Shown here: positions 7,489-33,287 of the stretch, one piece after another
Position numbering within the stretch: the stretch's first letter is position 1
Layout of the letters: each line of letters begins with the position of its first letter
Assembly: GCF_056712565.1 (NCBI RefSeq)
Contig: NZ_CM160072.1
Direction: 5' to 3' (one strand)
Length of the DNA stretch: 64,000 nucleotides
The notes under the pieces: generated by a model
Databases searched by the model: none
What the model saw: only the letters and a program-made list of their open reading frames with translations
Told to the model about the DNA's origin: nothing
Translations under genes and position numbers: made by a program

Positions 7489-7498
7489 GGTGACCTTT

Positions 7499-8615: not shown

Positions 8616-8659
8616 CGTAGATCATGCTCCTGCATGAAAACCACTACATAAAGCGGGCA

Positions 8660-8678
8660 GGCGTGGCGGGGATACGAG
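8660..8678. other. Putative cos (cohesive-end) site of the prophage
   Basis: GGCGTGGCGGGGATACGAG resembles the 19-nt P2/186 cohesive-end sequences as I recall them (GGCGTGGCGGGGA...); lies upstream of portal Q as expected. Confidence 0.45.
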
Positions 8679-8692
8679 CGCGCGCTTGCACC

Positions 8693-8721
8693 TTGATATT
8701 CACGGTTTGGTTAAGTATTGT
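8693..8721 (+). promoter_or_regulatory. Putative sigma70 promoter of the protease operon
   Basis: TTGATA - 17 bp - TATTGT, about 40 bp upstream of ATG 8762. Confidence 0.35.
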
Positions 8722-8761
8722 CTTAGTCAGAGTCCATAACATATTACAGAATGGAGTTGTT

Positions 8762-9409: not shown

Positions 9410-9852
9410 TTGCTATACCAAATGAAGATGCTGAGTCTTGGTTGTCCACTTTAAAAACGTATCAATCTTCATCTGTCAGGAATTTTCTCGAAAATGGCGA
9501 TGAAGAAAAGGCTCTTGAGCTATGGCTAACTGCATCTGGCCCAAGTTCAGTTGCTCAATTTGGCGGTGATAATTCAAAAATGCCGGGAAGAAAAGCGTTT
9601 GTTGAGCAGTTTAAATTAGAGTTTAAGGCTTTTGTATGTGGAGGTGATAAATATGCAGAGGAGAGGGAATGTTTAGGAGCACTGACTGGTGATGTTAAAA
9701 CATACTTTGTAGGGGTGATCTCTTCGGCAATTGCGGGTTCTTTGGGGGCAACAGCAACATTTATTGCTCCAGCTGTAGTAATTATGTTGATAGCTGTCTC
9801 AAAAATGGGAATTAATGCTTGGTGTTCATTAGAGACAACGACAGAATCTTAG
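9406..9852 (+). CDS. Small protein (148 aa) with C-terminal hydrophobic membrane anchor; partner of the protease
   Basis: ATGA start/stop overlap with protease gene (translational coupling); C-terminal segment YFVGVISSAIAGSLGATATFIAPAVVIMLIAVS is hydrophobic. Confidence 0.7.
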   Translation: MIAIPNEDAESWLSTLKTYQSSSVRNFLENGDEEKALELWLTASGPSSVAQFGGDNSKMPGRKAFVEQFKLEFKAFVCGGDKYAEERECLGALTGDVKTYFVGVISSAIAGSLGATATFIAPAVVIMLIAVSKMGINAWCSLETTTES

Positions 9853-9879: not shown

Positions 9880-10906
9880 ATAAATCATAATGCTGAAATC
9901 GGATAGTTTTCTCACCTAACCATTCATTAACTTCCATTATTCTTTTTTGGAGTGGAATTAGTTCATTTCTAACAAAAACCTTACTCGCCTTCTCCACATC
10001 CCCAAACCCTCCAACATTATTAGGCATTATCCCCATCATTTGTGGCGGCACACGATGCGCCGCCATCATGTCGTCCCGGCTCACGTTCTTGATATTCAGG
10101 AACTCATCCTTCGCCGCCACTTCTGACAACGGGATAATCTGAAGCCCGTCCTTTTTACCGTTAGGCGAGTACATAAACAGGTTACGGAAGTTACCAGGAC
10201 CTTTGGCACTTTTCATCGCGTTGCGGAGATTGTTCACATCCTCCTGATTCTGCGCGGCATCGGTCATATACATGATGAAGCCTGCATGGCTGCCGTTGAT
10301 GTAATACTTGCGGCGGAACAGCGTGGCGGACTTATTGAGCAGGGCTGACGGAATGGCAGAAAGATAGCCGGGCAGGCCGTAGATCTCCTGGTTGATGTCC
10401 GGTTCCATCAGATGAAAAATGCTGCCTTTCGTGAACTGATACGGCTGGGTTGTCATACCGTATTGCACAAACCAGTAGGTATCCAGGTCTAACCCGCGTC
10501 GGGTGTATTTTGCCAGCGCAGGATCAAGGGCGATAACTTCACCGAATCGGTTCGTGCGTTTCTCCAGGTAGGCGTTACCAAATACCAGATAGTCCTGCAC
10601 AAAACGCGAAAAAGCCTGCTGGCTGAGCAGCGGATGAGGGATATAGGTACTGGTCAGAATGTTGCACTTTACTGCAATCGGAGAACTGTGATGCACGGCG
10701 GCGCGGAAGGTGCGCGCCAGTCCGTCAAAGCTGACGGGCGGCTCATACCAGCGATCTGTCTGTACGCATTCCACATAGTCCAGCAGTTCACGGCGGTCCA
10801 GAACAGGAACGGGATCACCGAAGCTGAATGCTTCGGCTGAAGTCTGGCTTTTATGCTGGAGCTGGTTCGTCGACGCAGCGCGGTTCTTCTTACTCTTTCC
10901 CATCAA
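9878..10906 (-). CDS. Q: Portal protein gpQ
   Basis: 342-aa ORF; first leftward late gene; size and position as P2 Q. Confidence 0.9.
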   Translation of the reverse strand: MMGKSKKNRAASTNQLQHKSQTSAEAFSFGDPVPVLDRRELLDYVECVQTDRWYEPPVSFDGLARTFRAAVHHSSPIAVKCNILTSTYIPHPLLSQQAFSRFVQDYLVFGNAYLEKRTNRFGEVIALDPALAKYTRRGLDLDTYWFVQYGMTTQPYQFTKGSIFHLMEPDINQEIYGLPGYLSAIPSALLNKSATLFRRKYYINGSHAGFIMYMTDAAQNQEDVNNLRNAMKSAKGPGNFRNLFMYSPNGKKDGLQIIPLSEVAAKDEFLNIKNVSRDDMMAAHRVPPQMMGIMPNNVGGFGDVEKASKVFVRNELIPLQKRIMEVNEWLGEKTIRFQHYDL

Positions 10907-12630
10907 AAAATCTCCACAATATTACTGGTATTGGCGGACTCGCCCTGCAGTGGTTCGTTAAACAGTGCGTGCATTGTTGCCCAGGCCAGATCGGCGTGGC
11001 TGGCTTCTTCGCTGCGGCTGGCTTCATAGGTCGGGCGGTTGCCGCTGGCGGTGGTTGCGCGACGGATTGCCATGAATGACTGCGCAATGTCGGTGTGTCC
11101 GGCGTCAAACTCCAGACGGCGGTGGCTGATAATGTCGTAGGCCTTGAGTACCAGGGCGTTTTTAACGTTGGGGTTGTAGACAAACTCCCGGACGGCAGGA
11201 AAGAACGCTTTCACGTTCTCATAAACCCCGTGACCGACACCTGTCGAGTCGATGCCGATATATGTCACGTTGTACTGTTCGGTCAGTTTTTTGATGGCGT
11301 CCGCCTGGGCGCGGAAGTCCATCCCGCGCCACTGGTGACGCTCAAGAATACGGAACTTACCGCCCGGCACGGCTGGCGGAGCCACCACCACGCATCCGGC
11401 ACTGTCGCCGTTCTGCGTACCTTTTGCCGGGTCATAACCGATCCACACTTCGCGCCAGCCAAACGGGCGCAGCGCCAGTGCATGAAAGTCGGTCCAGACT
11501 TCCCAGCTGTCCACCATGCACGCCTGCAATTCGCTGAGCGGGAACACAGATGCGAGATCGTCAACGAACTCGCACATCAGCAGGTTCTGGTATTCGTCCG
11601 GGCTGTACTCCATGCGCAACTGGTCGAGGTCGAACAGGTTACAGCCGCCGCGTACCGCATCTTCCACGGTGACTATCTGGCGGTATTGCCCGTCTGCGCA
11701 CAGCAGGCCGGGGGCCAGATTGCTGTGGGACAGGTCGATGTCCACCTTATCGGCTTTGTTGCGCCCACGGTTGAACAACGCGCCGGACCAGAACGGATAA
11801 GCACTGTGGGTCAGGCTGGATGGCGTGGAAAAATAGGTCTGTCGCCATTTCTTGTGAATAGCCATACCGGAAGCCACTTTGCGCAGCTCCTGAAATTTTG
11901 GTATCCAGAAATATTCATCCAGATACAGGTTGCCGTGATAACTCTGGGCCGTGCGGGCATTGGTGCCTAGGAAGTAAAGCGTGGCCCCGTTAGGAAGCAC
12001 CATCGGATCGCCTTTCAGCTCCACCTCCACTTCTTTGGCGAAGTCGATGATGTACTGCTTAAAGACGTGGGCCTGTGCCTTACTGGCGGAAAGGAAAATC
12101 TGGTTACGCCCGGTAAGCAGAGCGTCAATCAGGGCTTCACGGGCAAAGTAAAAGGTTGCGCCGATCTGGCGTGACTTCAGCAGGTTGCGGATGCGGTTGT
12201 TTTTTCCGGCTTCCCACCAGTGGCGCTGGTAGTTGAACATGGAGGAATGGAAGATTTCTTCCAGCTTCTCAATCTGTTCATCGGTGAAAACGTTCTTTTC
12301 CGGCTGACGGCGCGGGCCTTTGTTGCGGTTGGCGACGTTAGGGTTTAAGTCGGCTTCGTTGCCGCCATTGTTAAACTTGCCGATCCGCGCATGGCGCTCC
12401 GACTGGCGCGCCAGCAGGTCAATCTCTTTGAAATCTTTCCCTTCTTTGTGCTCCTTCATAATGAGCTGGCAGTAGCGTGCGGCGGTGGTGAGCTGCATCT
12501 GATCCAGCGGCCCATAGTCACCCCACTTGTCGCGTTTTTTCCAGCTGTTCCAGTAAGTTTTTTCTAACGGAGCACGGCTCATGACAGTGAAAGCAAAGCG
12601 TTTTCGCATCGGGGTGGAAGGTGCCACCAC
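10903..12630 (-). CDS. P: Terminase large (ATPase) subunit gpP; true start probably downstream of 12630
   Basis: 575-aa ORF following Q; ATPase motifs; 5' end overlaps the divergent capsid ORF so start is uncertain. Confidence 0.85.
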   Translation of the reverse strand: MVAPSTPMRKRFAFTVMSRAPLEKTYWNSWKKRDKWGDYGPLDQMQLTTAARYCQLIMKEHKEGKDFKEIDLLARQSERHARIGKFNNGGNEADLNPNVANRNKGPRRQPEKNVFTDEQIEKLEEIFHSSMFNYQRHWWEAGKNNRIRNLLKSRQIGATFYFAREALIDALLTGRNQIFLSASKAQAHVFKQYIIDFAKEVEVELKGDPMVLPNGATLYFLGTNARTAQSYHGNLYLDEYFWIPKFQELRKVASGMAIHKKWRQTYFSTPSSLTHSAYPFWSGALFNRGRNKADKVDIDLSHSNLAPGLLCADGQYRQIVTVEDAVRGGCNLFDLDQLRMEYSPDEYQNLLMCEFVDDLASVFPLSELQACMVDSWEVWTDFHALALRPFGWREVWIGYDPAKGTQNGDSAGCVVVAPPAVPGGKFRILERHQWRGMDFRAQADAIKKLTEQYNVTYIGIDSTGVGHGVYENVKAFFPAVREFVYNPNVKNALVLKAYDIISHRRLEFDAGHTDIAQSFMAIRRATTASGNRPTYEASRSEEASHADLAWATMHALFNEPLQGESANTSNIVEIF

Positions 12631-13930
12631 CGACGGACGCGAAATCCAGCGTGAATGGCTGGAACAGATGGCAGCCAGCTACAACCCGGCGGTGTATACC
12701 GCGCTGATTAACCTTGAGCACATCAAGTCTTATATACCGGACAGCACCTTTAACCGCTACGGCAAGGTGACGGCGCTGTTTGCTGAAGAAATCACGGAAG
12801 GTCCGCTGGCAGGCAAGATGGCGCTGTATGCCGACGTTGAGCCAACGGAGTCCCTGGTGGAACTGGTGAAAAAAGGCCAGAAATTATTCACCTCTATGGA
12901 AGTCAGCCCGAAGTTCGCTGATACGGGCAAAGCCTACCTGGTCGGCCTGGCTGCCACTGATGACCCTGCCAGTCTGGGTACGGAAATGCTGACATTCAGC
13001 GCCAGTGCAGCCCATAACCCGCTGGCAAACCGCAAGCAGAATCCTGCCATGACTGAGCAGTCCGGTCAGCTGCTGGGGCTGGGTGTTGGCAGCACCATTG
13101 CCGGAACCACTGACACCACCGCAAAAGAGCGTGAACCTGTCGATCCGACGCTGATGGTCGATGTGGAATATAAATGCGAGCAGACCAACTTTGACACGGT
13201 GCTGACCTACGCGAAGCTGGACCTGTGGGCGAAGTTTCAGGATTTCCAGGTGCGTATCCGTGACGCCATCGTGAAACGTCAGGCACTGGACCGCATCATG
13301 ATCGGCTTTAACGGCGTGAAGCGTGCGAAAACCTCCAACCGTAGTGAAAACCCGCTGCTGCAGGATGTGAACAAAGGCTGGCTGCAGAAAATCCGTGAGG
13401 ATGCACCGGATCACGTCATGGGCAGCACCACCACGGGCGGCGAAACCACACCGGGTGCGGTGAAAGTCGGTAAAGGGGGCGAATATGCCAACTTGGACGC
13501 TGTGGTGATGGATGCGGTCAATGAGCTTATCGACGTGGTCTACCAGGACGATGACGATCTGGTGGTGATTTGCGGTCGTGAACTGCTGTCTGACAAGTAT
13601 TTCCCGCTGGTCAACAAAGAGCAGGAAAACAGTGAAAAATTGGCAGCCGATATGATTATCAGTCAGAAACGCATGGGCGGTCTGCAGGCCGTGCGTGCGC
13701 CGTTCTTCCCGCCGAATGCGCTGCTGATCACCCGTCTGGATAACCTGTCCATCTACTGGCAGGAAGACACCCGCCGCCGTTCAGTTATCGACAACCCGAA
13801 ACGTGACCGGATTGAAAACTTTGAATCCGTTAACGAAGCCTATGTGGTTGAGGACTACCGCTGCGCCGCACTGGTGGAAAACATCCAGATTGGTGATTTC
13901 AGCGCCGCCGCAGCCGAAACCGGAGCGTAA
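12581..13930 (+). CDS. Capsid protein with N-terminal gpO-like scaffold/protease region and C-terminal gpN-like major-capsid region in one 449-aa ORF
   Basis: N-terminus FRIGVEGATTDGR resembles P2 gpO start as I recall it; C-terminal half LITRLDNLSIYWQE...DNPKRDRIENFES...VVEDY resembles P2 gpN; single uninterrupted frame. Confidence 0.75.
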   Translation: MTVKAKRFRIGVEGATTDGREIQREWLEQMAASYNPAVYTALINLEHIKSYIPDSTFNRYGKVTALFAEEITEGPLAGKMALYADVEPTESLVELVKKGQKLFTSMEVSPKFADTGKAYLVGLAATDDPASLGTEMLTFSASAAHNPLANRKQNPAMTEQSGQLLGLGVGSTIAGTTDTTAKEREPVDPTLMVDVEYKCEQTNFDTVLTYAKLDLWAKFQDFQVRIRDAIVKRQALDRIMIGFNGVKRAKTSNRSENPLLQDVNKGWLQKIREDAPDHVMGSTTTGGETTPGAVKVGKGGEYANLDAVVMDAVNELIDVVYQDDDDLVVICGRELLSDKYFPLVNKEQENSEKLAADMIISQKRMGGLQAVRAPFFPPNALLITRLDNLSIYWQEDTRRRSVIDNPKRDRIENFESVNEAYVVEDYRCAALVENIQIGDFSAAAAETGA

Positions 13931-17390: not shown

Positions 17391-17820
17391 ACTGCAGAAG
17401 GTGGATGAGTGGCTGGCGGCCTTGCTGGCGAATCTGGAGCCTGCCACACGCCAGCGTATGATGCGGGAACTGGCGCAGGAGTTGCGCCGCAATCAGCAGA
17501 AGAATATCAGGCTGCAGCTTAACCCTGATGGCAGCGGCTTTGAGCCGCGCCGGGTAGCAGCCCGCAGTAAGAAGGGGCGCATCAAACGCCAGATGTTCGC
17601 CAAATTGCGCACTAATAAATACCTGAAAACTGCCGCCACAGCGGATTATGCCTGCGTGTATTTTGATGGAAAAGTCCAGCGCATCGCCTGTGTACACCAC
17701 TATGGACTGCGTGACCGTGTTAGTCGAAGAGGTTTAAAAGTACAGTACCCTGAGAGAAGGCTTTTAGGATTTACTAAGGATATTAGTAACTTGAACTTGG
17801 GTGTTTACTTAAAACGCTAA
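17383..17820 (+). CDS. S: Tail completion protein gpS; last ~20 codons run into AT-rich cargo DNA
   Basis: Synteny after R; 3' end from about 17760 is AT-rich and continuous with the cargo island. Confidence 0.75.
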   Translation: MAELQKVDEWLAALLANLEPATRQRMMRELAQELRRNQQKNIRLQLNPDGSGFEPRRVAARSKKGRIKRQMFAKLRTNKYLKTAATADYACVYFDGKVQRIACVHHYGLRDRVSRRGLKVQYPERRLLGFTKDISNLNLGVYLKR

Positions 17821-17909
17821 AGTAAATAGTGGGTTAAGAGAATTAGTGGAGGGAGACTTTATCGTTCTACATAAGATACCTTGCTTGAATATACTATAAA
17901 GCTCTTTTT

Positions 17910-17938
17910 TTGAGATTAATCTTGTTGTACTTTAATGT
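17910..17938 (+). promoter_or_regulatory. Putative sigma70 promoter for the OLD-like gene
   Basis: TTGAGA - 17 bp - TAATGT upstream of ATG 17966. Confidence 0.3.
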
Positions 17939-17965
17939 CTTCACCTCACTAATGGAGCTAATTTT

Positions 17966-19924
17966 ATGATAGTAGGGATTTTTTTAAGGTATTTTAAAAC
18001 ATACAACGGAAATCATTACATACCGTTATCTTCTGGAAGTCAGTTTTGTGGAATTGTTGGTAACAATGGAATTGGCAAAAGTTCTGTTCTTGAGGCTTTA
18101 GATTCGTTTATTAATAACAAACCATGGAATATTAATTCTTCATTTAAAAGAACCTCCAGTGACAGACCTTCTCCACATATTGTTCCTTTATATCTTATAA
18201 AGCGAGAGGAATTACATGAAGATCATCATGCTAAAGCTGAAATCTTAACGCAATTAGTATTAGAATATAGCAATAGTAATGCTGATGTTACATTGACGCC
18301 AACAACACGAAATATAATTAATACGTTTTTTGAACATATTAACAAATTAAAAAGAAATTTAAATCTCCAAGATTATTTTTTGATCCCTCTGGGTGTCGAG
18401 AAAGATGGTGATGTAAGTATTTCGATTCTTAATGGGAAGAGTTTATGTCGACTTTTGGAGGTTGATAATCCCGATAATAAAGTTTCGAGCGAGTTGCTTA
18501 GTAAGCACTTTGGGTATTTATTACATCATGTCCGCCATAAGTATGAATATATATATATTCCAAAGGATATAGACTCTGAATCGTTTACGAAGCTAGAAAC
18601 AAGTGAAGTACAAAAGTTGATGGGTGAGTCTTTAGAGCAGATAATTAAAGATAGAATATCTGATAGAACCATAAGTCAAATCAATACAGGGCTTGCCAAA
18701 TTTCTGGATGGTGTTGAAGAGGAGCTTGAAGAATATGGTTATAGAACATCTGGCGAGAGACAATCGCGATTAAAAAAGAAAGATGTTTATAATTTGATTA
18801 TCGAAGCATTCTTCAAAGTTAGGAAATTAAATAAAAAGCAGAATTCAGGTTGGATTGAAATTAGCTCGCTAAGTTCAGGGGAGAAGCAACGTGCAATAAT
18901 GGATATTGCATATGGGTTTCTTACCAATCATAGAGAAAATGGCGATAATCTGATTATTGGAATTGATGAGCCAGAATGTTCTCTTCATATGTCTGCATGT
19001 TTTGAACAATTTGAAAAGCTCTATTCTATTAGTGGTATATGTGAACAATTAATATTTACTTCACATTGGTATGGCTATCTTCCAACCGTCGAAAATGGAT
19101 GTACCACAACTATCCTTAAAACAGATTCAACTCATCATTTTGAATTATATGATCTTGCCAGTTATAGAGAAGAAGTCAGGAAGAAAGTAAAAACCTCTTC
19201 CCCGGGTATGCCATTTGATATAAAAATAAAAAGTGTAAATGACCTTATACAATCCATAATATCTAGCTGTTTGGCTGAGAAACCTTACAATTGGTTGATT
19301 TGTGAGGGTACTACAGAAAAAATATATCTTTCGCATTATCTAAAGGACTTGGTAGAAAATAAAAGGCTAAGGATTGTGCCTGTAGGGGGAGCTAGTGAAG
19401 TTAAAAAAATATTTAAGCATTTAGAAGCTTCTTATGAAGAGTTCAAAAAAGACCTCAAAGGAAAAGTGTTCTTACTAACCGATACAGATTCAGAGTTGGT
19501 GTCATATGATACCCCAGTTATGCCGCATGTTGTTTGTAAGCGAATTGTTAGTGTAGGTGATTCAGTGAAGTTGGTTGATATTTCTTCCAATCCAGTTTCT
19601 CCTGCAACAGAAATAGAGGATTGTCTTAATCCTGTATCGTTTATAGAGGCTTTAACATCATTTTCTTCACGTTTTCCTGAGCTTCAGGCATTGCTGCCTA
19701 ATAGTAATGTTATGATAGATGAAAGACATTCATCGTTTGCTGCGATGGATTTGTCACCCAAGAACAAAAAAACGCTTGATGCTTTTTTTGACCGTGAAGG
19801 AATTAAGTTTGATTTTTCAAAGGAATATATTTCAATCTGTGAGCGAAATGAGCGGAAAAGGCCAGAGTGGATTGCCAAAATTGAAAATTTTTTTATAAGT
19901 GATAAACCTGTAAAGTTTAATTGA
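17966..19924 (+). CDS. OLD-family ATP-dependent nuclease (ABC ATPase + TOPRIM), 652 aa; accessory defence-type cargo
   Basis: Walker A GNNGIGKSS, ABC signature LSSGEKQ, Walker B LIIGIDEPE, H-loop FTSHW; C-terminal TOPRIM-like WLICEGTTE and LLTDTDSE; same motif layout as host YbjD in this window; AT-rich. Confidence 0.85.
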   Translation: MIVGIFLRYFKTYNGNHYIPLSSGSQFCGIVGNNGIGKSSVLEALDSFINNKPWNINSSFKRTSSDRPSPHIVPLYLIKREELHEDHHAKAEILTQLVLEYSNSNADVTLTPTTRNIINTFFEHINKLKRNLNLQDYFLIPLGVEKDGDVSISILNGKSLCRLLEVDNPDNKVSSELLSKHFGYLLHHVRHKYEYIYIPKDIDSESFTKLETSEVQKLMGESLEQIIKDRISDRTISQINTGLAKFLDGVEEELEEYGYRTSGERQSRLKKKDVYNLIIEAFFKVRKLNKKQNSGWIEISSLSSGEKQRAIMDIAYGFLTNHRENGDNLIIGIDEPECSLHMSACFEQFEKLYSISGICEQLIFTSHWYGYLPTVENGCTTTILKTDSTHHFELYDLASYREEVRKKVKTSSPGMPFDIKIKSVNDLIQSIISSCLAEKPYNWLICEGTTEKIYLSHYLKDLVENKRLRIVPVGGASEVKKIFKHLEASYEEFKKDLKGKVFLLTDTDSELVSYDTPVMPHVVCKRIVSVGDSVKLVDISSNPVSPATEIEDCLNPVSFIEALTSFSSRFPELQALLPNSNVMIDERHSSFAAMDLSPKNKKTLDAFFDREGIKFDFSKEYISICERNERKRPEWIAKIENFFISDKPVKFN

Positions 19925-19931
19925 TAAATGG

Positions 19932-19951
19932 TCGCAGGGGAAACCCTGCGA
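19932..19951 (+). terminator. Terminator-like hairpin after OLD-like gene
   Basis: TCGCAGGG-GAAA-CCCTGCGA (GNRA-type loop) 8 bp after the stop; weak T-tract. Confidence 0.45.
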
Positions 19952-19958
19952 TATTCTA

Positions 19959-20006
19959 CTAACCTCTAACCTCTAACCTCTAACCTCTAACCTCTAACCT
20001 CTAACC
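19959..20006. repeat. Heptanucleotide tandem repeat (CTAACCT) x ~6.9
   Basis: Six perfect CTAACCT units plus CTAACC read directly from the sequence; intergenic between cargo gene and V promoter. Confidence 0.95.
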
Positions 20007-20034
20007 AGAGGGTTTATTTCTTTTCAAAGAAAAT

Positions 20035-20052
20035 TGTATCTTCTTTTATACA
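20035..20052 (+). promoter_or_regulatory. Putative Ogr-dependent late promoter element upstream of V
   Basis: TGT-N12-ACA dyad (TGTatcttcttttatACA), the conserved activator site of P2 late promoters; P2 has a late promoter before V. Confidence 0.5.
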
Positions 20053-20099
20053 AAATAAGCTGTTTGAAGAGGTTGTGTAAAGCATGGAAAAATAATCTT

Positions 20100-20678
20100 A
20101 TGAATACACAACTCACAGAAATCATGCGCCTTATCACCAACCTGATCCGCACAGGGGTAGTCACTGAAGTGGACAAGGAAAACTGGCTTTGTCGGGTGAA
20201 AACGGGCGACCTTGAAACCAACTGGATTAACTGGCTGACGCTGCGCGCGGGTAATGCCCGCACATGGTGGCGACCATCGGAAGGTGAGCAGGTGGTGCTG
20301 CTGAGTCTGGGAGGAAATCTGGAAACCGCCTTTGCGCTGCCCGCTGTCTATTCGAATCAGTTCGCACCACCGTCGACGTCGGCGGAAGCCTGCGTGACAG
20401 AACATCCTGACGGTGGCTGGTTTGAATACGAACCAGCCACCGGGCGCTGGTATGTCAGGGGCATCAAATCCATGGTCATTGAGGCTGCTGACAACATCAC
20501 CCTGAAAACCAGAGAGTTTGTGCTGGAGGCTGACCGCACGCGTATTAACAGCGAAGTAGTGATCAATGGTGGTGTTACCCAGGGCGGCGGTGCAATGAGT
20601 TCTAACGGAATTGTGGTTGATGCACATCAGCATACTGGCGTCCTGAAAGGCGGCGACACAACCGGAGGCCCGGTATGA
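20100..20678 (+). CDS. V: Baseplate spike protein gpV
   Basis: N-terminus and WWRPSEGEQV region resemble P2 gpV; synteny. Confidence 0.85.
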   Translation: MNTQLTEIMRLITNLIRTGVVTEVDKENWLCRVKTGDLETNWINWLTLRAGNARTWWRPSEGEQVVLLSLGGNLETAFALPAVYSNQFAPPSTSAEACVTEHPDGGWFEYEPATGRWYVRGIKSMVIEAADNITLKTREFVLEADRTRINSEVVINGGVTQGGGAMSSNGIVVDAHQHTGVLKGGDTTGGPV

Positions 20679-21034
20679 CGCTTTATAGCGGGATGAACAA
20701 TACCAGCGGCAAAGCTATTACTGATATTGACCATCTGCGCCAGTCGGTGCGGGACATTCTGCTGACACCGCAGGGTAGCCGCATTGCCCGCCGGGAATAT
20801 GGTTCCCTGCTGTCGGCACTGATAGACCAGCCACAAAATCCGGCGTTACGCCTGCAGGTCATGTCGGCAGTGTATGTGGCGCTGAGTCGCTGGGAGCCAC
20901 GGCTGACGCTGGATTCCATCACCATCAACAGCAACTTTGACGGTTCTATGGTGGTGGAGCTGACCGGGCGGCGGAATAACGGTGTACCTGTGTCCCTTTC
21001 CGTATCGACAGGAGCAGAGAATGGCAGTGATTGA
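20675..21034 (+). CDS. W: Baseplate protein gpW
   Basis: 119 aa; synteny V-W-J-I. Confidence 0.8.
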   Translation: MTLYSGMNNTSGKAITDIDHLRQSVRDILLTPQGSRIARREYGSLLSALIDQPQNPALRLQVMSAVYVALSRWEPRLTLDSITINSNFDGSMVVELTGRRNNGVPVSLSVSTGAENGSD

Positions 21035-21929
21035 CCTTTCGCAGTTGCCTGCGCCGCAGATTGTGGATGTGCCGGACTTTGAGACGCTGCTTACCGAACG
21101 CAAGGCAGAATTTGTGGCGCTTCATCCGAAAGATGAGCAGGAAGCAGTGATCCGCACGCTGGAACTGGAATCTGAACCCGTCACCAAATTGTTGCAGGAG
21201 AATACTTACCGTGAGTTGCTTCTGCGCCAACGCATTAACGAAGCCGCGCAGGCGGTGATGGTGGCTTACGCGATGGGCGGCGATCTTGACCAGCTCGCTG
21301 CCAACTACAACGTGAAACGCCTGACGGTGACACCTGCTGATAATGACGCTGTGCCGCCCGTTGCAGCAGTGATGGAAAGCGATGAAGCGTTACGCCTGCG
21401 TGTGCCTGCAGCCTTTGAGGGGCTTTCAGTTGCGGGACCAACTGCAGCTTATGAATTTCATGCCCGAAGCGCCGACGGTCGGGTGGCGGATGCCAGTGCA
21501 ACCAGTCCGGCTCCTGCAGAGGTGGTGCTTACTGTCCTGAGCCGTGAAGGCGACGGAACAGCAGAAAAAGACTTGCTGGATGTGGTGGAGAAAGCCCTGA
21601 ACAGTGAGAACGTCCGCCCGGTGGCTGACCGTCTGACGGTTCGCAGCGCAGAAATCATCCCGTACCGTGTGGAAGCCACCATTTTTCTCTATCCGGGACC
21701 GGAAGCGGAGCCGGTAATGGCAGCGGCAAAAGCCAGCCTGCAGAAGTACATCGCCAGTCAGACGCGGCTTGGTCGGGATATTCGCCGTAGTGCCATTTTT
21801 GCCGCGCTGCATGTTGAGGGGGTTCAACGTGTGGAGCTGGCTTCACCGCTGGCTGATGTGGTCCTGAACAAAACACAGGCCGCATCATGTACGCAGTGGA
21901 GCGTAACCAACGGAGGAACGGATGAATAG
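21021..21929 (+). CDS. J: Baseplate protein gpJ
   Basis: ATG 21021 after GGAG; synteny. Confidence 0.85.
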   Translation: MAVIDLSQLPAPQIVDVPDFETLLTERKAEFVALHPKDEQEAVIRTLELESEPVTKLLQENTYRELLLRQRINEAAQAVMVAYAMGGDLDQLAANYNVKRLTVTPADNDAVPPVAAVMESDEALRLRVPAAFEGLSVAGPTAAYEFHARSADGRVADASATSPAPAEVVLTVLSREGDGTAEKDLLDVVEKALNSENVRPVADRLTVRSAEIIPYRVEATIFLYPGPEAEPVMAAAKASLQKYIASQTRLGRDIRRSAIFAALHVEGVQRVELASPLADVVLNKTQAASCTQWSVTNGGTDE

Positions 21930-22527
21930 TCTGCTGCCACTGGGTTCAACTTCACTGGAGCGCCGACTGGCGCAGACCTGTAGCGGGATTTCTGATCTGC
22001 AGGTGCCGCTGCGTGACTTGTGGAATCCGGCAACCTGTCCGGTCAGTTTCCTGCCTTATCTCGCCTGGGCGTTCTCTGTGGATCGCTGGGACGAGGGCTG
22101 GACAGAAAGCGTCAAGCGCCAGGTGGTGAAGGATGCTTTTTATATTCATCAGCATAAAGGGACCACCAGTGCCGTGCGGCGGGTGGTGGAGCCGTTCGGC
22201 TTTCTGATCCGCATTATTGAGTGGTGGCAGACCGGAGAGACTCCGGGCACGTTTCGTCTGGATATCGGCGTGCAGGACCAGGGCATCACTGAAGATACCT
22301 ATCTGGAACTTGAGCGACTGATAAGCGATGCCAAACCATGTAGCCGTCACATGATCGGCATGTCCATCAACCTGCAGACCAGCGGCCCGCATTGGGTGGG
22401 AGCTGCCAGCTATCTTGGCGAAGAAATCACGATCTATCCGTATATCAACGAAACAATTATTTCCGGCGGCACCGCGCATGAAGGCGGAGCGGTCCATGTT
22501 ATTGACACAATGAGAGTGAATCCATGA
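21922..22527 (+). CDS. I: Baseplate/tail-fibre attachment protein gpI
   Basis: 201 aa; synteny. Confidence 0.8.
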   Translation: MNSLLPLGSTSLERRLAQTCSGISDLQVPLRDLWNPATCPVSFLPYLAWAFSVDRWDEGWTESVKRQVVKDAFYIHQHKGTTSAVRRVVEPFGFLIRIIEWWQTGETPGTFRLDIGVQDQGITEDTYLELERLISDAKPCSRHMIGMSINLQTSGPHWVGAASYLGEEITIYPYINETIISGGTAHEGGAVHVIDTMRVNP

Positions 22528-23930
22528 GCACAAAATTTTATACCCTGCTGACGGATATTGGCGCGGCGAAACTCGCCAGCGCCGCCGCGCTCGGTGTGCC
22601 TTTAAAAATTACCCATATGGCGGTCGGCGATGGCGGCGGAACATTGCCAACGCCGGACGCCAAGCAGACAGCATTGGTAAATGAGAAACGCCGGGCTGCG
22701 CTGAATATGCTCTATATCGACCCGCAGAACAGCAGCCAGATTATTGCTGAACAGGTGATCCCTGAAAATGAGGGTGGTTGGTGGATACGTGAAGTGGGCC
22801 TGTTTGATGAGTCCGGGGTATTGATTGCCGTGGGAAACTGCCCGGAAAGCTATAAGCCGCAACTGGCTGAAGGCAGCGGGCGTACCCAGACCGTGCGCAT
22901 GGTGCTGATTACCAGCAGTACGGACAATATCACCCTGAAAATCGACCCTGCTGTAGTACTGGCAACTCGCAAGTATGTGGATGATAAGGCACTGGAGCTG
23001 AAGGTGTATGTGGATGACCAAATGGCAAAACACCTTGCCGCAGCGGACCCACATTCACAGTATGCGCCAAAAGCCAGCCCGATATTTACCGGAACCCCCA
23101 AAGCGCCGACGCCAGCGGCGGGGAATAATACCACGCAACTTGCGACCACCGCGTTTGTTCAGGCGGCACTGACGGCCCTTATTAATGGTGCGCCAGCCAC
23201 GCTGGACACGCTAAAAGAAATAGCCGCAGCCATTAACAATGATCCGAAATTCAGTACCACCATTAACAATGCGCTGGCACTGAAAGCGCCGCTGTCGAGT
23301 CCGGCACTCACCGGAACGCCAACAGCCCCTACTGCCGCACAGTCGGTTAACAATACACAGATTGCCACTACGGCTTTTGTGAAATCGGCGATTGCAGCAA
23401 TGGTGGGGTCTGCACCTGCGGCACTGGATACATTGAACGAACTGGCGGCGGCGCTGGGGAATGACCCGAACTTTGCCACGACAATGCTTAATGCGCTAGC
23501 AGGTAAACAACCGCTGGACAATACGCTGACTAATTTGAGTGGAAAGGATGTTGCTGGTCTTCTCGCATACCTTGGTTTAGGAGAAGCGGCGAAAAGGGAT
23601 GTGGGCACAGGAGATAATCAGATACCGGATATGTCTTTCTGGTCTTCCGCATCGGGTGGCGTTAATTTCCCTAATGGATTCCAGATGCGATTCGGTGCTA
23701 TCGCTGGTAATGGTGGAAAATTATTTTCTACGCCATTTACAAATCAGTGCTATGGCATTGTTTTCGGACAAACATATGGAGCCAACTACTGGATGTTCAG
23801 CCCGATGTACAGAGCATCTGATCTGAGTAATACCAGTTTTGCATTCATTAACAAAGCCTGGTCTGGAATTCCGGGGACAGGTGCTCAGGACGCTGGTGAA
23901 TCAGTTTTTTATATTGCAGTAGGGTATTAA
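22524..23930 (+). CDS. H: Tail fibre protein gpH (constant N-terminal part joined to currently expressed variable C-terminal part)
   Basis: 468 aa with Ala/Thr-rich repeats (TTAFVQAALTAL, TTAFVKSAIAAM); crossover site inside the gene. Confidence 0.85.
   Translation: MSTKFYTLLTDIGAAKLASAAALGVPLKITHMAVGDGGGTLPTPDAKQTALVNEKRRAALNMLYIDPQNSSQIIAEQVIPENEGGWWIREVGLFDESGVLIAVGNCPESYKPQLAEGSGRTQTVRMVLITSSTDNITLKIDPAVVLATRKYVDDKALELKVYVDDQMAKHLAAADPHSQYAPKASPIFTGTPKAPTPAAGNNTTQLATTAFVQAALTALINGAPATLDTLKEIAAAINNDPKFSTTINNALALKAPLSSPALTGTPTAPTAAQSVNNTQIATTAFVKSAIAAMVGSAPAALDTLNELAAALGNDPNFATTMLNALAGKQPLDNTLTNLSGKDVAGLLAYLGLGEAAKRDVGTGDNQIPDMSFWSSASGGVNFPNGFQMRFGAIAGNGGKLFSTPFTNQCYGIVFGQTYGANYWMFSPMYRASDLSNTSFAFINKAWSGIPGTGAQDAGESVFYIAVGY
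23560..23585. other. Inversion crossover site (gix/hix-like), left
   Basis: TTCTCGCATACCTTGGTTTAGGAGAA fits the Din-invertase site pattern TTnTCnnAAACCnnGGTTTnnGAnAA (one mismatch); inverted copy at 25351. Confidence 0.6.
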
Positions 23931-23931
23931 T

Positions 23932-24375
23932 ATGGAAATGGTTTATAGCGCCTCAAATAATAGTTTTTTCGCTAAAAATGATGTGGCGAAATATGAACAG
24001 GCCGGATGGGAACTTGCTGATATTGTCGAAGTGACATATGACACTTACCTGGAATTTATTGAAGACAGAACGTTGCAAGGGAAAGTACGCATCGCGGGTG
24101 ATGATGGCCTTCCCACCTGGGGGGAAATTCCACCGCCAACTCATGAGGAACAAATTGCCGCAGCCGAACTGGAAAAGCAGCAATTGATTAATCAGGTCAA
24201 CGAATACATATACAGTAAGCAATGGCCTGGTAAAGCAGCGATTGGTCGCCTGAAAGGTGAGGAACTGGCGCAATATAATTTGTGGCTGGATTATCTGGAC
24301 GCACTGGAACTGGTTGATACCTCCAGTGCTCCAGATATTGAATGGCCTACGCCTCCGGCAGTTCAGGCCAGATGA
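23932..24375 (+). CDS. Tail fibre assembly protein (orientation-1 copy)
   Basis: 147 aa ending ...DIEWPTPPAVQAR, like Tfa chaperones; follows H. Confidence 0.75.
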   Translation: MEMVYSASNNSFFAKNDVAKYEQAGWELADIVEVTYDTYLEFIEDRTLQGKVRIAGDDGLPTWGEIPPPTHEEQIAAAELEKQQLINQVNEYIYSKQWPGKAAIGRLKGEELAQYNLWLDYLDALELVDTSSAPDIEWPTPPAVQAR

Positions 24376-24949
24376 CGTCCGGCGCTGTGCTGGTATCTGT
24401 TGCCGTCACCGCATCAATGTAATCCAGCACAGCGTTAAGTCGGGTGTTTTCTGTCTGCGTCAGCTTCCGCCCGGCCTGCAATTTCAGTTGAATCAGACTA
24501 ATGGAAGCCATTGCAGTATCAATCAGTGACTGACGCTGTGCTTCTGCCGCGTCTAGTGTGGCGCTATGCTGTGCCTCAGTATCTGTCACCCATTTCTCAC
24601 CATCCCATTCATCGTATGGCGTTAACGGGGCGATAGTGGTTGTATTTTCAGGGTAATCACCTGGTGCTGTGATTTCTTTTGATTCTCCTGTTTCGGTGCT
24701 AAAAACGATTTCACCGCGATGGTCTGGCACATATTCCCATGAGTTAAAATCTGCAGAACGGCAGATTGCATAACCAGCTTTACATGTAACTGGTGAATCT
24801 AAACAGGAATATGCAGGGATACCGACACCAATGGCAAGATATTCATTTGAAGTAGAAATATATTCCCGAGTTTTACCATCATAGTTATAGACGGTAATAT
24901 TCCCCGCCTTCGTGGCAATAATCTCGCTATTTAATACGGCGTTATCCAT
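24347..24949 (-). CDS. Tail fibre assembly protein (alternative, orientation-2 copy)
   Basis: 200 aa; C-terminus ...APDVIWPELPEA mirrors the other Tfa; opposite strand inside invertible segment. Confidence 0.7.
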   Translation of the reverse strand: MDNAVLNSEIIATKAGNITVYNYDGKTREYISTSNEYLAIGVGIPAYSCLDSPVTCKAGYAICRSADFNSWEYVPDHRGEIVFSTETGESKEITAPGDYPENTTTIAPLTPYDEWDGEKWVTDTEAQHSATLDAAEAQRQSLIDTAMASISLIQLKLQAGRKLTQTENTRLNAVLDYIDAVTATDTSTAPDVIWPELPEA

Positions 24950-25404
24950 TATGCAGCCCTTACGATATAGTTAAATGCAATATTTCGTGGACGGGTTTCG
25001 CTTCCGCCATATGATGATGTAAATCCCGAATATGCCCGGTGTCCCGCATCCGTCGTATTAGCCCAGGAAGGACCGCTAGAAGTATAGATGACCCCATTGT
25101 AATCATGGCCGTGTGCCTCAATGCTCCCGTCCTGAGCAGACAGGAGAGTCCGTCCTGAATCAATTCCTCTTCCATCATCCCACCCACGAATGAATTCGCC
25201 GCGTAAATCTGGCAATTTATTTGTCGGATAAACTTTTGCCAGTTCCGGATACTCTTCGGCAGAAAAAGCTGCACCGTTGCATTTCAGCCAGCCTGTTGGC
25301 GGTGTGACTGAAGGCCACGGAACAGGCACACCTACGGGTAATGCAGAGCCTTCTCCTAAACCAACGTTTAAGAAAATGCAGCGATTACGACTAACTGGCA
25401 TCAT
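24949..25404 (-). CDS. Alternative tail-fibre C-terminal variable segment (expressed after inversion)
   Basis: 151-aa minus-strand ORF; shares GLGE junction with H at the crossover site. Confidence 0.7.
   Translation of the reverse strand: MMPVSRNRCIFLNVGLGEGSALPVGVPVPWPSVTPPTGWLKCNGAAFSAEEYPELAKVYPTNKLPDLRGEFIRGWDDGRGIDSGRTLLSAQDGSIEAHGHDYNGVIYTSSGPSWANTTDAGHRAYSGFTSSYGGSETRPRNIAFNYIVRAA
25351..25376. other. Inversion crossover site (gix/hix-like), right
   Basis: TTCTCCTAAACCAACGTTTAAGAAAA; inverted repeat of the site at 23560; adjacent to invertase gene. Confidence 0.6.
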
Positions 25405-25431
25405 CCCCGGTTTTTATTCAAGGAGATGATC

Positions 25432-25998
25432 ATGCTTATTGGCTATGTACGCGTGTCAACAAATGACCAGAACACCGATTTGCAACGTAGTGCGCTGAAC
25501 TGCGCGGGATGTGAGCGGATTTTTGAGGACAAAATCAGTGGCACTAAGTCCGACAGACCGGGGCTTAAAAAACTGCTCAGGACACTATCGGCAGGTGACA
25601 CACTGGTTGTCTGGAAGCTGGACAGGTTGGGGCGCAGTATGCGGCATCTTGTTACGCTGATAGAAGAGTTGCGCCAGCGCGGCGTGAATTTCCGAAGTCT
25701 GACTGACAGTATTGATACCAGTACCCCAATGGGCAGTTTCTTTTTTCATGTCATGGGTGCCCTGGCTGAAATGGAACGCGAACTGATAGTTGAACGTACC
25801 AGGGCAGGGCTGGCTGCAGCTCGTGCTAAAGGCAGAGTAGGTGGACGCCGTCCTAAGTTGACTACCGAACAGTGGGCACAGATTGGGCGTTTACTCGAGG
25901 CCGGAGAATCAAGACAGCGTATTGCACTGATTTTTGATGTAGGCGTTTCTACCATTTATAGAAAATTTCCGGCAAATAAGAGCAATGAATCTCCCTGA
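25432..25998 (+). CDS. Serine DNA invertase (Gin/Pin/Hin family)
   Basis: MLIGYVRVSTNDQNTDLQR...VVWKLDRLGRSM... nearly collinear with Mu Gin as I recall it; catalytic Ser in YVRVST; AGGAG RBS. Confidence 0.9.
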   Translation: MLIGYVRVSTNDQNTDLQRSALNCAGCERIFEDKISGTKSDRPGLKKLLRTLSAGDTLVVWKLDRLGRSMRHLVTLIEELRQRGVNFRSLTDSIDTSTPMGSFFFHVMGALAEMERELIVERTRAGLAAARAKGRVGGRRPKLTTEQWAQIGRLLEAGESRQRIALIFDVGVSTIYRKFPANKSNESP

Positions 25999-26046
25999 AT
26001 CAGCTTTATTTTGATTATCCCTGAAAGCAGACAAATACCGTCATTT

Positions 26047-26064
26047 TGTGTGAATAACGGTACA
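26047..26064 (+). promoter_or_regulatory. Putative Ogr-dependent late promoter element upstream of FI
   Basis: TGT-N12-ACA dyad (TGTgtgaataacggtACA) about 80 bp upstream of FI ATG. Confidence 0.5.
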
Positions 26065-26140
26065 ACTGCGCTTAGCTGTTTGTCAGGCACAATCACTTCA
26101 ACATAGGGCGAAGCCTAATCCAATCAGGAGGTTCGCCACT

Positions 26141-27313
26141 ATGGCTCAGGATTACCACCACGGAGTGCGCGTTGTTGAAGTCAACGAAGGCACCCGATCC
26201 ATTACCACGGTGAGCACCGCCATCGTGGGTATGGTCTGCACGGGCGATGATGCCGATGCAAAAATGTTTCCTCTTAATAAACCCGTGCTGATCACTGATG
26301 TGCTGACTGCCAGCGGTAAAGCGGGCGAGTCCGGTACGCTGGCCCGTTCGCTGGATGCCATCGCTGACCAGGCAAAACCCGTGACCGTTGTTGTGCGTGT
26401 GCCGCAGGGTGAAACGGAAGAAGAAACCACGACCAATATCATCGGCGCAGTGACTGCTGAAGGTAAAAAAACAGGCATGAAAGCCCTGTTATCTGCCCAG
26501 TCACAGCTCGGCGTTAAACCGCGCATTCTCGGCGTGCCAGGTCACGACACGAAGGCGGTAGCTACTGAGTTGCTGAGCGTGGCGCAAAGCCTGCGTGGAT
26601 TTGCTTACCTGTCAGCGTATGGTTGCAAGACGGTGCAGGAAGCAATCACTTACCGTGAAAACTTCAGTCAGCGTGAAGGAATGCTGATCTGGCCCGACTT
26701 TACTGGCTGGGACACGGTGCTGAATGCCGAAGCAACGGCTTATGCCACCGCCCGTGCGCTTGGTCTGCGCGCCAAAATTGACGAGCAGACCGGATGGCAC
26801 AAAAGCCTGTCCAACGTAGGCGTTAACGGTGTCACCGGAATTTCTGCTGATGTGTTCTGGGATCTGCAGGACCCGGCAAGCGATGCGGGACTGCTGAACC
26901 AGAACGACGTCACCACCCTTATCCGCAAAGACGGTTTTCGCTTCTGGGGTTCCCGCTGCCTGAGTGATGACCCGCTCTTTGCCTTCGAAAACTACACCCG
27001 CACGGCGCAGGTGCTGACGGACACAATGGCAGAAGCGCACATGTGGGCAGTGGACAAACCGCTGAACCCGTCGCTGGCGCGCGACATTATCGAGGGCATC
27101 CGCGCCAAAATGCGCAGCCTGGTCAGTCAGGGGTATCTCATTGGTGGTGATTGCTGGCTGGATGAGTCGGTGAACGACAAAGACACTCTGAAAGCCGGAA
27201 AACTCACCATCGACTACGACTACACGCCAGTGCCGCCACTTGAAAACCTGATGTTGCGTCAGCGCATCACCGATCAGTACCTGGTGAATTTCGCCAGCCA
27301 GGTCAGCGCGTAA
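26141..27313 (+). CDS. FI: Tail sheath protein gpFI
   Basis: 390 aa; synteny FI-FII-E-T-U-D. Confidence 0.9.
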
Positions 27314-31881: not shown

Positions 31882-32978
31882 ATTTCAGCTCTGAACTGCT
31901 TAACAAAAGCAACAAAACTCCGGCATTCAGCATCAGTATTGCAGGCAAGGATATCACCACTGTGCTGGACAACCGCCTGATGGGGCTTACGCTGACGGAT
32001 AACCGGGGCTTTGAAGCGGACCAGCTTGATCTGGAGCTGGACGACGCTGACGGAAAAATCGTGCTGCCGCGCCGTGGTGCGGTCATTACGCTGGCGCTGG
32101 GCTGGAAGGGGCAGCCGCTTTTCCCGAAAGGGGCATTCACGGTGGACGAGATTGAACACACTGGCGCACCGGACCGCCTGACTATCCGGGCGCGAAGTGC
32201 TGATTTTCGGGAAACCCTGAATACCCGCCGTGAAAAATCGTGGCATAACACCACCATCGGGGAAGTGGTTAAGGAAATAGCCGCGCGTCACAAGCTGAAG
32301 ATGGCACTGGGTAAAGACCTGTCGGATAAGCCCGTGGAGCATATAGACCAGACTAATGAGAGTGACGGCAGTTTTCTGATGCGGCTGGCGCGACAGTACG
32401 GTGCCATCGCGTCGGTGAAAAATGGCAATCTGTTATTCATCCGGCAGGGGCAGGGCAAAAGCGCCACTGGTAAACCACTGCCAGTGATCACTATCACACG
32501 CAAGGACGGCGACAGTCACCGCTTTACCCTGGCAGATCGCGGAGCCTACACGGGCGTCATTGCCAGCTGGTTGCATACCCGCGAACCTGCGAAGAAAGAA
32601 AGCACCACGGTGAAGCGTAAGCGCAGAACTAAGAAGCAGAAGAAAGAGCCGGAAGTGAAGCAGGGTGATTACCTGGTGGGTACGGATGAAAACGTGCTGG
32701 TACTCAATCGCACCTATGCCAATCGGAGTAACGCCGAACGGGCAGCGAAAATGCAGTGGGAACGCCTGCAACGTGGCGTTGCGTCATTCTCGCTACAACT
32801 GGCGGAAGGGCGGGCAGATCTCTACACGGAAATGCCTGTGAAGGTCAGTGGTTTTAAACAGCCGATAGATGATGCGGAATGGACCATTACGACTCTGACA
32901 CATACCGTCAGCCCGGATAACGGTTTTACGACCAGTCTGGAGCTTGAAGTGAGGATTGATGATTTCGAAATGGAATGA
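31878..32978 (+). CDS. D: Tail protein gpD
   Basis: 366 aa; synteny. Confidence 0.85.
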   Translation: MNFSSELLNKSNKTPAFSISIAGKDITTVLDNRLMGLTLTDNRGFEADQLDLELDDADGKIVLPRRGAVITLALGWKGQPLFPKGAFTVDEIEHTGAPDRLTIRARSADFRETLNTRREKSWHNTTIGEVVKEIAARHKLKMALGKDLSDKPVEHIDQTNESDGSFLMRLARQYGAIASVKNGNLLFIRQGQGKSATGKPLPVITITRKDGDSHRFTLADRGAYTGVIASWLHTREPAKKESTTVKRKRRTKKQKKEPEVKQGDYLVGTDENVLVLNRTYANRSNAERAAKMQWERLQRGVASFSLQLAEGRADLYTEMPVKVSGFKQPIDDAEWTITTLTHTVSPDNGFTTSLELEVRIDDFEME

Positions 32979-33068: not shown

Positions 33069-33287
33069 ATGATGATTTGCCCACTGTGTGGAAGTGCCGC
33101 CCATACTCGCAGCAGTTTTCAGGTATCTTCATTGACCAAAGAGCGTTATAACCAGTGCCAGAACATTAACTGCAGCCATACTTTTGTTACCCATGAAACT
33201 TTTGTTCGTTCGATTGCAACACCAAAAGAGTCTAATCCAGTTCAGCCGCATCCAATGAAATCAGGACAGGTGGCGCTCTCTCTTTGA
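33069..33287 (+). CDS. ogr: Ogr late-gene transcriptional activator (zinc finger)
   Basis: MMICPLCGSAAHTRSS...CQNINCSHTF: Cys4 zinc-binding pattern as in P2 Ogr; last prophage gene. Confidence 0.8.
   Translation: MMICPLCGSAAHTRSSFQVSSLTKERYNQCQNINCSHTFVTHETFVRSIATPKESNPVQPHPMKSGQVALSL

Follow-up and report, generated by a model that had tools for sequence, protein, structure and literature searches.

Do the two tail operons of a P2/186-like prophage (Peduoviridae) of E. coli carry activator-dependent late promoters of the P2 type, and how do these promoters lie with respect to the variable DNA next to them? Late promoters of this kind, four of them in P2, share the consensus TGT-N12-ACA (PMC3931495), an inverted repeat centred at about -55 and bound by Ogr, which contacts RNA polymerase's alpha subunit (PMC3152322). 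Activation from such sites, centred near -55, is carried out through the alpha subunit by small Cys4 zinc-finger proteins (PMC3931495, PMC3152322). The window, the whole 64,000-nucleotide stretch of DNA that was analysed (64 kb), contains exact TGT-N12-ACA dyads upstream of genes V and FI, as an earlier note had claimed in assigning them to PV and PF. Promoters served by activators of the Ogr/B/Delta/Pag family also include those of 186, PSP3 and the satellite P4 (Psid and PLL), and the sites of the window are likened to these by published consensus and mechanism. Comparison with P2 and with relatives makes it very probable that both dyads serve PV and PF as sites of activator binding.

Position and sequence of the probable PV and PF dyads

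The dyads, the genes that follow them and the activator gene are:

20035..20052, no strand, predicted activator-binding dyad of PV, TGTATCTTCTTTTATACA, its centre 56.5 nt before the A of the V start codon (ATG)
20100..20678, + strand, gene V, baseplate spike, heads the V operon (Pfam Phage_base_V, Apex)
26047..26064, no strand, predicted activator-binding dyad of PF, TGTGTGAATAACGGTACA, its centre 85.5 nt before the FI start codon (ATG)
26141..27313, + strand, gene FI, tail sheath, heads the F operon (Pfam)
33069..33287, + strand, Ogr/B/Delta-family zinc-finger late activator, 72 aa, CX2CX22CX4C (PF04606 Ogr_Delta, 6.7e-22)

Both dyads stand at the heads of late morphogenetic operons, as identified by the Pfam assignments of V and FI directly downstream, and both are invariant in three E. 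coli genomes (SF-468, MS15052 and AF6). The activator homologue is 51% identical to P2 Ogr over 72 aa without gaps and, as in P2, the cognate gene is found at the late region's right end. The immunity region of the window is of the 186 type (CI repressor domains), unlike that of P2.

The P2 record (NC_001895) annotates activator sites at 10239-10266 and 17555-17583 upstream of the same two genes, and placement and geometry agree with the window. The distance from dyad to V is approximately 55.5-57.5 nt in P2 and 56.5 nt in the window, that to FI is 82.5 nt versus 85.5 nt, and in both phages some 55-57 bp separate the dyad from the start, mapped or predicted. Outside the dyad there is no DNA homology. 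The P2 sequences themselves are imperfect, with PF and PP/PO reading TGT-N12-CCA and PV reading either TGT-N11-ACA or TTG-N12-ACA, whereas those of the window are perfect. The notion that P2's own PV and PF are exact TGT-N12-ACA sites is thus refuted, and "P2-type" is to be read as the family consensus.

Motif statistics and conservation among relatives

With only six specified bases the motif carries little information, and chance matches in intergenic DNA have to be considered. By itself the motif shows no enrichment in the 64-kb window (10 occurrences versus 15.3 +/- 4.1 in shuffled sequence), and the PV dyad is embedded in 34%-GC DNA in which TGTAT and ATACA are common words. The other eight exact matches in the window all fall within coding sequence or host DNA. 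Since enrichment was not significant, position-specific and comparative tests were used instead. Upstream of V, an exact TGT-N12-ACA is present in 16 of 16 unrelated sequence clusters with its centre 54.5-57.5 nt from the ATG, and upstream of FI in 17 of 17 (centre 78.5-85.5 nt); elsewhere in the 300 nt upstream of these genes the same clusters contain almost no dyads. The earlier note had named lack of conservation in relatives as grounds for rejection, and on this count the dyads hold. The cluster flanks outside the dyad are unrelated (pairwise identity 29% versus 27% expected), which argues against conservation by descent of the surrounding DNA. From a shuffle background of about 2.4e-4 per position and the positional ranges of the relatives (four positions for V, eight for FI), our own arithmetic gives a joint chance of matches in both ranges of approximately 2e-6.

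A symmetrised weight matrix was built from 31 relatives' sites, with the window's own clusters left out, and applied to the roughly 64,000 positions of the window. The PF dyad at 26047 ranks first (19.3 bits) and the PV dyad at 20035 second, with a moderate 13.8 bits; the spacing between the PV dyad centre and the ATG also exceeds that of most relatives by 1 bp (56.5 versus 55.5 nt). The third-best match, at 35824 (12.0 bits), falls within the host gene ybjM and reflects chance. As judged from these sequence comparisons, position and conservation, and not motif enrichment, settle the dyads as genuine; the chance explanation is effectively refuted, its residual probability being negligible.

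A host factor could also account for one of the sites. The segment TGTGAATAACGGTACA in the PF dyad reads TGTGA-N6-GTACA, near the CRP consensus TGTGA-N6-TCACA, and would place PF under catabolite rather than Ogr control. This inner TGT-N10-ACA register is present because the PF dyad starts TGTGTG. Across the FI clusters, however, the conserved register is N12 and not N10, and TGTGA is missing from most of them. The half-sites of the PF dyad are moreover those of the dyad TGTGTGGTTGTCGGTACA found in relatives between the divergent genes P and O. In class I CRP activation a site centred near -54.5 would also be on the wrong helical face. Register and conservation across the FI clusters lead us to reject the CRP reading of the PF dyad, to which we attach a very small probability.

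Core promoters and predicted transcripts

Activator-dependent promoters of this type are expected to lack a strong, well-spaced -35, and the following elements are predicted downstream of the dyads:

20085..20093, + strand, predicted extended -10 of PV, TG-G-AAAAAT, TGGAAAAAT, which puts +1 on the A of the V ATG or beside it
26099..26104, + strand, predicted -10 of PF, CAACAT; AACATA is common to 12 of 17 FI-upstream clusters, with P2 geometry

No full sigma-70 consensus promoter was found on the + strand at either site; both have the activator-dependent type of core, a recognisable -10 with a weak or mis-spaced -35. Relative to the V ATG, an A at -11 occurs in 15 of 17 independent promoters and a T at -7 in 14 of 17 (p of about 1e-6 and 6e-5, respectively). 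The predicted PV start lies 56.5 nt from the centre of its dyad and the predicted PF start, near 26111, 55.5 nt from its own, while the dyad-to-start-codon distances at V and FI agree with the annotated promoters of P2.

The two predicted transcripts differ at their 5' ends. No Shine-Dalgarno sequence precedes V (-1.4 kcal/mol versus -7.5 for FI), as in P2, where the database annotation of NC_001895 puts the start on the first base of V. The V mRNA from PV thus appears to be leaderless, as annotated in the P2 record, and this reading is supported by the retention of the -10 and dyad geometry while the rest of the promoter has been replaced. A literature search returned nothing relevant on a leaderless P2 V transcript. 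The predicted PF leader contains the Shine-Dalgarno sequence AGGAGG at 26126-26131.

By analogy with the family, the 72-aa zinc-finger activator would bind each dyad, centred some 55-56 bp ahead of the start site, and recruit RNA polymerase via its alpha subunit. The core promoters would offer a usable -10 without a -35 at the proper spacing. Transcription from PV would then begin on the A of the V ATG or beside it and yield a leaderless V-W-J-I-H-tail-fibre transcript. Transcription from PF would begin near 26111, so that the FI-FII-E-T-U-D operon would be preceded by a leader of 30 nt containing a strong Shine-Dalgarno sequence.

Variable slots adjoining the probable late promoters

Variable slots of P2-like phages have been described between S and V (orf30) and between G and FI (fun(Z)) (PMC6823313), and the fun locus has been termed a second defence hotspot (PMC9519451). 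The TO region, by contrast, is the tin/old or A-Q locus and not the S-V slot (PMC6823313), and published hotspot surveys have centred on this A-Q (old/tin) locus (PMC9122126). The window has an OLD-like cassette in the S-V slot and an invertase with an invertible segment in the G-FI slot; in P2-like phages, as here, these slots hold low-GC DNA whose contents vary among relatives. The corresponding features are:

17733..20099, + strand, S-V slot cassette, 33.7% GC, with breakpoints defined against cargo-free CP019275
17966..19924, + strand, OLD-like ATPase-TOPRIM cargo gene, 652 aa (AAA_15, OLD-like_TOPRIM; PADLOC AriA 1e-21, Old 2e-11)
19959..20006, no strand, heptamer CTAACCT, 6.9 copies, copy number differing among strains
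23560..25376, no strand, invertible tail-fibre segment with 27-nt gix/cix-like inverted repeats at its ends, in opposite orientation in SF-468, MS15052 and AF6
25426..25998, + strand, serine DNA invertase (Resolvase + HTH_7), stop codon 49 nt before the PF dyad

Besides the OLD-like gene, the S-V cassette (33.7% GC versus 50-56%) takes in the final ~29 codons of S, hairpins resembling terminators, the heptamer array and the PV promoter in its entirety. The last CTAACCT copy forms a terminator-like hairpin (19998-20011) that ends 24 nt before the PV dyad. Homology with relatives that lack cargo picks up again precisely at the V ATG, close phage relatives align only from there onward, and a megablast search of the phage collection with the island and PV region gave no match. 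The DNA of this slot is non-homologous, compositionally foreign and variable among close relatives, as is characteristic of cargo in P2-like variable slots; the slot measures about 80 bp in 47 of 76 loci, and at least 16 other forms of it span 595-2279 bp. The point at which homology resumes indicates that the cassette replaced PV by its own version, and PV, on the basis of these alignments, belongs to the exchangeable S-V cassette and not to the conserved backbone. The earlier note placed both islands immediately upstream of late promoters. Both variable regions are indeed at late-operon boundaries; PV, dyad and core promoter alike, lies inside the low-GC OLD-like island.

The second region was likewise described as a cargo island, and it does occupy the G-FI, fun(Z) slot. 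It resembles the Gin/Cin/Pin/Hin segments (Mu G, P1 C, e14 P) in having a serine invertase beside a segment of approximately 1.8 kb, 27-nt inverted crossover sites within the tail-fibre gene, and alternative fibre C-termini with assembly genes on both strands, and both orientations are observed. It is therefore a Gin/Cin-type tail-fibre switch in a known slot and not cargo in the sense of the OLD-like island; it belongs to the tail-fibre operon rather than to defence cargo and is relevant here only as the neighbour upstream of PF.

The S-V slot, and often the G-FI slot, may be swapped as self-contained modules that carry their own late promoter and have the first base of the downstream operon as their right boundary, a reading for which we consider the chances even. 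If the V mRNA is leaderless, with +1 at the A of the AUG, any AT-rich cassette could replace another without disturbing expression of the tail genes, provided that it placed a TGT-N12-ACA dyad at -55.5 together with an extended -10 spanning -15 to -7. The searched literature held no description of S-V cassettes with their own PV and a right boundary at the V ATG.

Damage to this prophage copy

Comparison with relatives reveals two deletions upstream of the tail operons:

12548..12549, no strand, junction where 231 bp are deleted, with loss of P codons 1 to ~40 and of the shared PP/PO activator site
13046..13049, no strand, junction of a ~554-bp deletion, with O (matching GPO profile 2-152) joined in frame with N (matching capsid profile 53-327)

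No matrix match is left in the P-O region of the window, where relatives carry their shared dyad, and the set of PP, PO, PV and PF sites is accordingly incomplete. The P-O-N region has matches in 1088 of 5426 complete E. coli genomes, which puts this prophage family in roughly a fifth of them. Neither deletion is seen outside the window: P, O, N and the P-O dyad are intact in the closest genomes, whose identity is 99.9-100%, the deletions are absent among the best matches in complete E. coli genomes, and the deletion junction is absent from IMG/VR.

This prophage copy is defective. The earlier note's Ogr-dependent late programme finds support in the Ogr-family gene and the conserved PV and PF dyads, but it is incomplete as a result of the 231-bp deletion and the O-N fusion, and with the PP/PO site lost this copy can express at most two tail operons under Ogr control. 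The PV and PF sites may thus no longer be used in this strain. They could be intact but idle relics, recently stranded in a strain in which no Ogr-dependent programme runs. Having lost PP/PO, a portion of P, and O and N as separate genes, this copy would no longer produce phage, and the private nature of the deletions, with intact and nearly identical genomes as closest relatives and the junction missing from IMG/VR, suits such recent damage. The identity of the sites is not in dispute on this account; the ogr homologue, the two tail operons and their promoters all remain intact, and the sites could still answer the resident activator, a superinfecting P2-like phage or a P4-like satellite. We regard idleness as a possibility, though a rather doubtful one, and retain the assignment of the dyads to PV and PF.

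Significance

Ogr-type dyads before tail genes are a textbook feature and add nothing new to P2 biology. What departs from this picture is that a defence-gene cassette swapped into the slot brings the PV dyad with it and that the activator site of the head genes is deleted in this copy, a defect that matters to anyone inferring phage production or Ogr-driven expression from sequence. With the dyads in hand, two late promoters and the operon structure of this prophage family can be annotated with confidence. The S-V slot is less studied than the A-Q hotspot and holds diverse single-gene cargo (AIPR, FRG, OLD-like, DUFs) in cassettes with their own PV. At least 16 independent cassettes provide a clean comparative case in which the activator site and -10 geometry are preserved and all else in the promoter is replaced. 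If these cassettes are indeed exchanged together with their promoter up to the first base of V, this would amount to a design rule for a defence hotspot set directly against an essential operon.

Late Promoter Dyads and Their Probable Activator

In P2 the four late promoters share the consensus TGT-N12-ACA; Ogr binds to inverted repeats whose centre lies at about -55, and it acts via RNA polymerase's alpha subunit (PMC3931495, PMC3152322, citing Christie, Grambow, Van Bokkelen, Wood). A P2-like prophage fills the window's left half, up to ~33.3 kb; the public sequences closest to it are prophages, also P2-like, from E. coli and Klebsiella. Its gene order comprises replication gene A, Q and P (minus strand), O-N-M-L-X-lysis-R-S, V-W-J-I-H with the tail-fibre region, FI-FII-E-T-U-D, and an ogr-like gene, followed on the right by host genes (ybjL-like permease, ybjM, grxA, nfsA, rimK, and potF-like genes). 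The A-Q (old/tin) hotspot, the best studied (PMC9122126), spans 7198-9852 and holds a trypsin-like peptidase gene (8624-9409), an overlapping 148-aa ORF that matches no Pfam family, and, on the opposite strand, an ORF of 141 aa. The earlier note had placed dyads upstream of V and FI, and both are confirmed in the sequence; they are listed here with the repressor and the activator gene:

1132-1806, minus strand: 186-type CI repressor
20035-20052: PV dyad, TGTATCTTCTTTTATACA, centre 56.5 nt 5' of the V start codon (20100)
26047-26064: PF dyad, TGTGTGAATAACGGTACA, centre 85.5 nt 5' of the FI start codon (26141)
33069-33287: Ogr-like activator gene, product MMICPLCGSAAH…, 72 aa, CX2CX22CX4C motif

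With just six specified bases, TGT-N12-ACA occurs in the window no more often than expected (10 observed vs. 15.3), so a match alone proves nothing. The joint chance of exact matches within the allowed position ranges, with the background taken from shuffles of the window, is ~2e-6. With a symmetrised matrix built from 31 sites of other clusters, 26047 (19.3 bits) and 20035 (13.8 bits) are the top two positions in the window; the next best (12.0 bits) falls in the host gene ybjM and was rejected. A near-dyad, TGCGTCATTCTCGCTACA (32780-32797, 8.9 bits, TGC for TGT), in the 3' part of gene D and ~270 nt 5' of the ogr-like gene, is probably due to chance.

The P2 record (NC_001895) annotates the corresponding sites (P2 coordinates):

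10239-10266: PV activator site; annotated start 10308, the same base as the V start codon (10308)
17555-17583: PF activator site; annotated start 17626-17628; FI start codon 17652
3057-3087: shared PP/PO activator site; annotated starts 3016 and 3127

Spacing from dyad to ATG is alike in P2 (~55.5-57.5 and 82.5 nt) and the window, in agreement with the claim that the dyads lie where P2 has PV and PF. Beyond the dyads, P2 and the window show no sequence similarity. The P2 sites are themselves imperfect, reading TGT-N12-CCA at PF and PP/PO (17561-17578, 3063-3080) and TGT-N11-ACA (10243-10259) or TTG-N12-ACA at PV. In the 186-type relatives examined, the dyad is perfect at each of the three positions.

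Conservation was assessed in 80 loci with close V homologues and 80 with FI homologues from IMG/VR. The V-upstream sequences form 16 mutually unrelated clusters (non-dyad pairwise identity 29%, vs. 27% expected from composition), and in each of them a single exact TGT-N12-ACA has its centre 54.5-57.5 nt from the ATG (55.5 nt in ten clusters); only one further exact match occurs within 300 nt. All 17 FI-upstream clusters likewise have one dyad each, at 78.5-85.5 nt. The consensus, when extended, reads approximately TGT-R-Y-C-A … Y-S-R-Y-ACA. The dyads are thus kept in relatives, and the alternative that they are not conserved fails. Both are genuine sites of a promoter class that is well known. 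The Ogr-like product hits the Pfam family Ogr_Delta at 6.7e-22, and its gap-free alignment to P2 Ogr gives 51% identity.

Loss of the Divergent P/O Promoter

The late programme proposed by the earlier note is of the Ogr type, as the conserved dyads and Ogr homologue indicate, but it is incomplete. Relative to CP019275, a relative without S-V cargo, and to the near-identical SF-468-type prophages, 231 bp are absent between 12548 and 12549; with them P has lost its first ~40 codons, and the P-O intergenic region most of its length, including its dyad, TGTGTGGTTGTCGGTACA. This leaves the head/lysis/tail-completion operon and the P-Q operon without activator site and start sites. A further ~554 bp are absent at 13046-13049, fusing O in frame to N (12581-13930, 449 aa). 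Neither deletion was found in the best-matching E. coli genomes or in IMG/VR. PV and PF are the only late promoters remaining, and the prophage is defective.

Core Promoters and a Putative Leaderless V Transcript

When 17 independent V promoters (P2 included) are aligned on the ATG, 15 have A at -11 (p ~1e-6) and 14 have T at -7 (p ~6e-5); T also tends to occur at -15, and G at -14. This pattern reads as a predicted -10 hexamer with extended TG, spaced so that +1 would be the A of the ATG. The window's own sequence fits (TG at 20085-20086, AAAAAT at 20088-20093). A Shine-Dalgarno sequence is absent from the regions 5' of V (mean anti-SD pairing -1.4 kcal/mol, vs. -7.5 for FI). The -10 placement, this absence, and the P2 start annotated on the first base of V support a putatively leaderless V mRNA. 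At PF, the predicted -10 (CAACAT, 26099-26104; AACATA is present in 12/17 FI clusters) would give a start at ~26111, 55.5 nt from the dyad centre, and a 30-nt leader with AGGAGG at 26126-26131. No full sigma-70 consensus occurs on the + strand at either dyad site, as expected of activator-dependent promoters.

Variable Regions Upstream of V and FI

The slots between S and V (orf30 in P2) and between G and FI (fun(Z)) were already known (PMC6823313, PMC9519451). Homology to CP019275 ends at 17732, among the final ~29 S codons, and restarts at 20099, a single base ahead of the ATG of V. The intervening 2.37 kb has 33.7% GC, compared to 50-56% for the phage backbone, and contains, in order, a candidate promoter, an OLD-like ATPase-TOPRIM gene, terminator-like hairpins, a heptamer array, and the PV promoter; E. 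coli SF-468 is 100% identical over this region. In CP019275 the PV dyad, TGTATCAGCACTGATACA, begins 4 nt 3' of the S stop codon. Given these breaks, the cassette was not inserted upstream of PV; the whole interval from the end of S to the V ATG has been replaced, and the cassette supplies its own PV. The final ~29 codons of tail-completion gene S (17733-17820) belong to the AT-rich cassette and not the conserved backbone, so that every S-V cassette also rewrites the S C-terminus; S alignments to other cargo-bearing loci stop at residues 130-144. In 47/76 loci the slot measures ~80 bp; the other forms, at least 16, range over 595-2279 bp, have 31-36% GC without exception, and mostly carry a single cargo gene that is on the opposite strand, like P2 orf30. 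The cargo falls into families that include AIPR, FRG, DUF2971, and DUF6216, or into none.

A perfect array of 6.9 CTAACCT copies (19959-20006) separates the OLD-like gene from the PV dyad, and its last copy makes up a hairpin that is terminator-like (19998-20011). By one count, copies vary among strains with the same island (window 6, SF-468 6, MS15052 5, AF6 9); match lengths step by 7 bp across the array and the dyad is invariant.

The same boundary tendency holds for PF. Homology to the window there has its left end at the crossover site (25350), just before the dyad (26015-26046), or at the FI ATG (26140/41), the last in 45/80 loci, some with an FI protein 99% identical. The second island is a Gin/Cin-type switch:

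23560-23586 and 25350-25376: inverted sites, 27 nt, bounding a 1.8-kb segment
25426-25998: serine invertase, adjoining the segment

The segment (23560-25376) is in the opposite orientation in the E. coli genomes SF-468, MS15052, and AF6, so inversion does occur; the segment belongs to the tail-fibre operon and is not defence cargo. H has 468 aa in the window, followed by a 147-aa assembly gene, and 487 aa in those three genomes, followed by a 200-aa gene. Of the proposal that both islands sit immediately upstream of late promoters, the placement of variable regions at operon boundaries stands, but PV lies inside the OLD-like cassette and the second island is a tail-fibre switch.

A general rule of promoter-carrying cassettes, linked to a leaderless V mRNA, has in our judgement an even chance of being correct. 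Ahead of the OLD-like gene is a sigma-70-like promoter candidate (TCTACA-18-TATACT, 17866-17895). If this is a promoter, the layout of promoter, cargo, terminator, and PV would insulate the V operon from lysogenic expression of the cargo.
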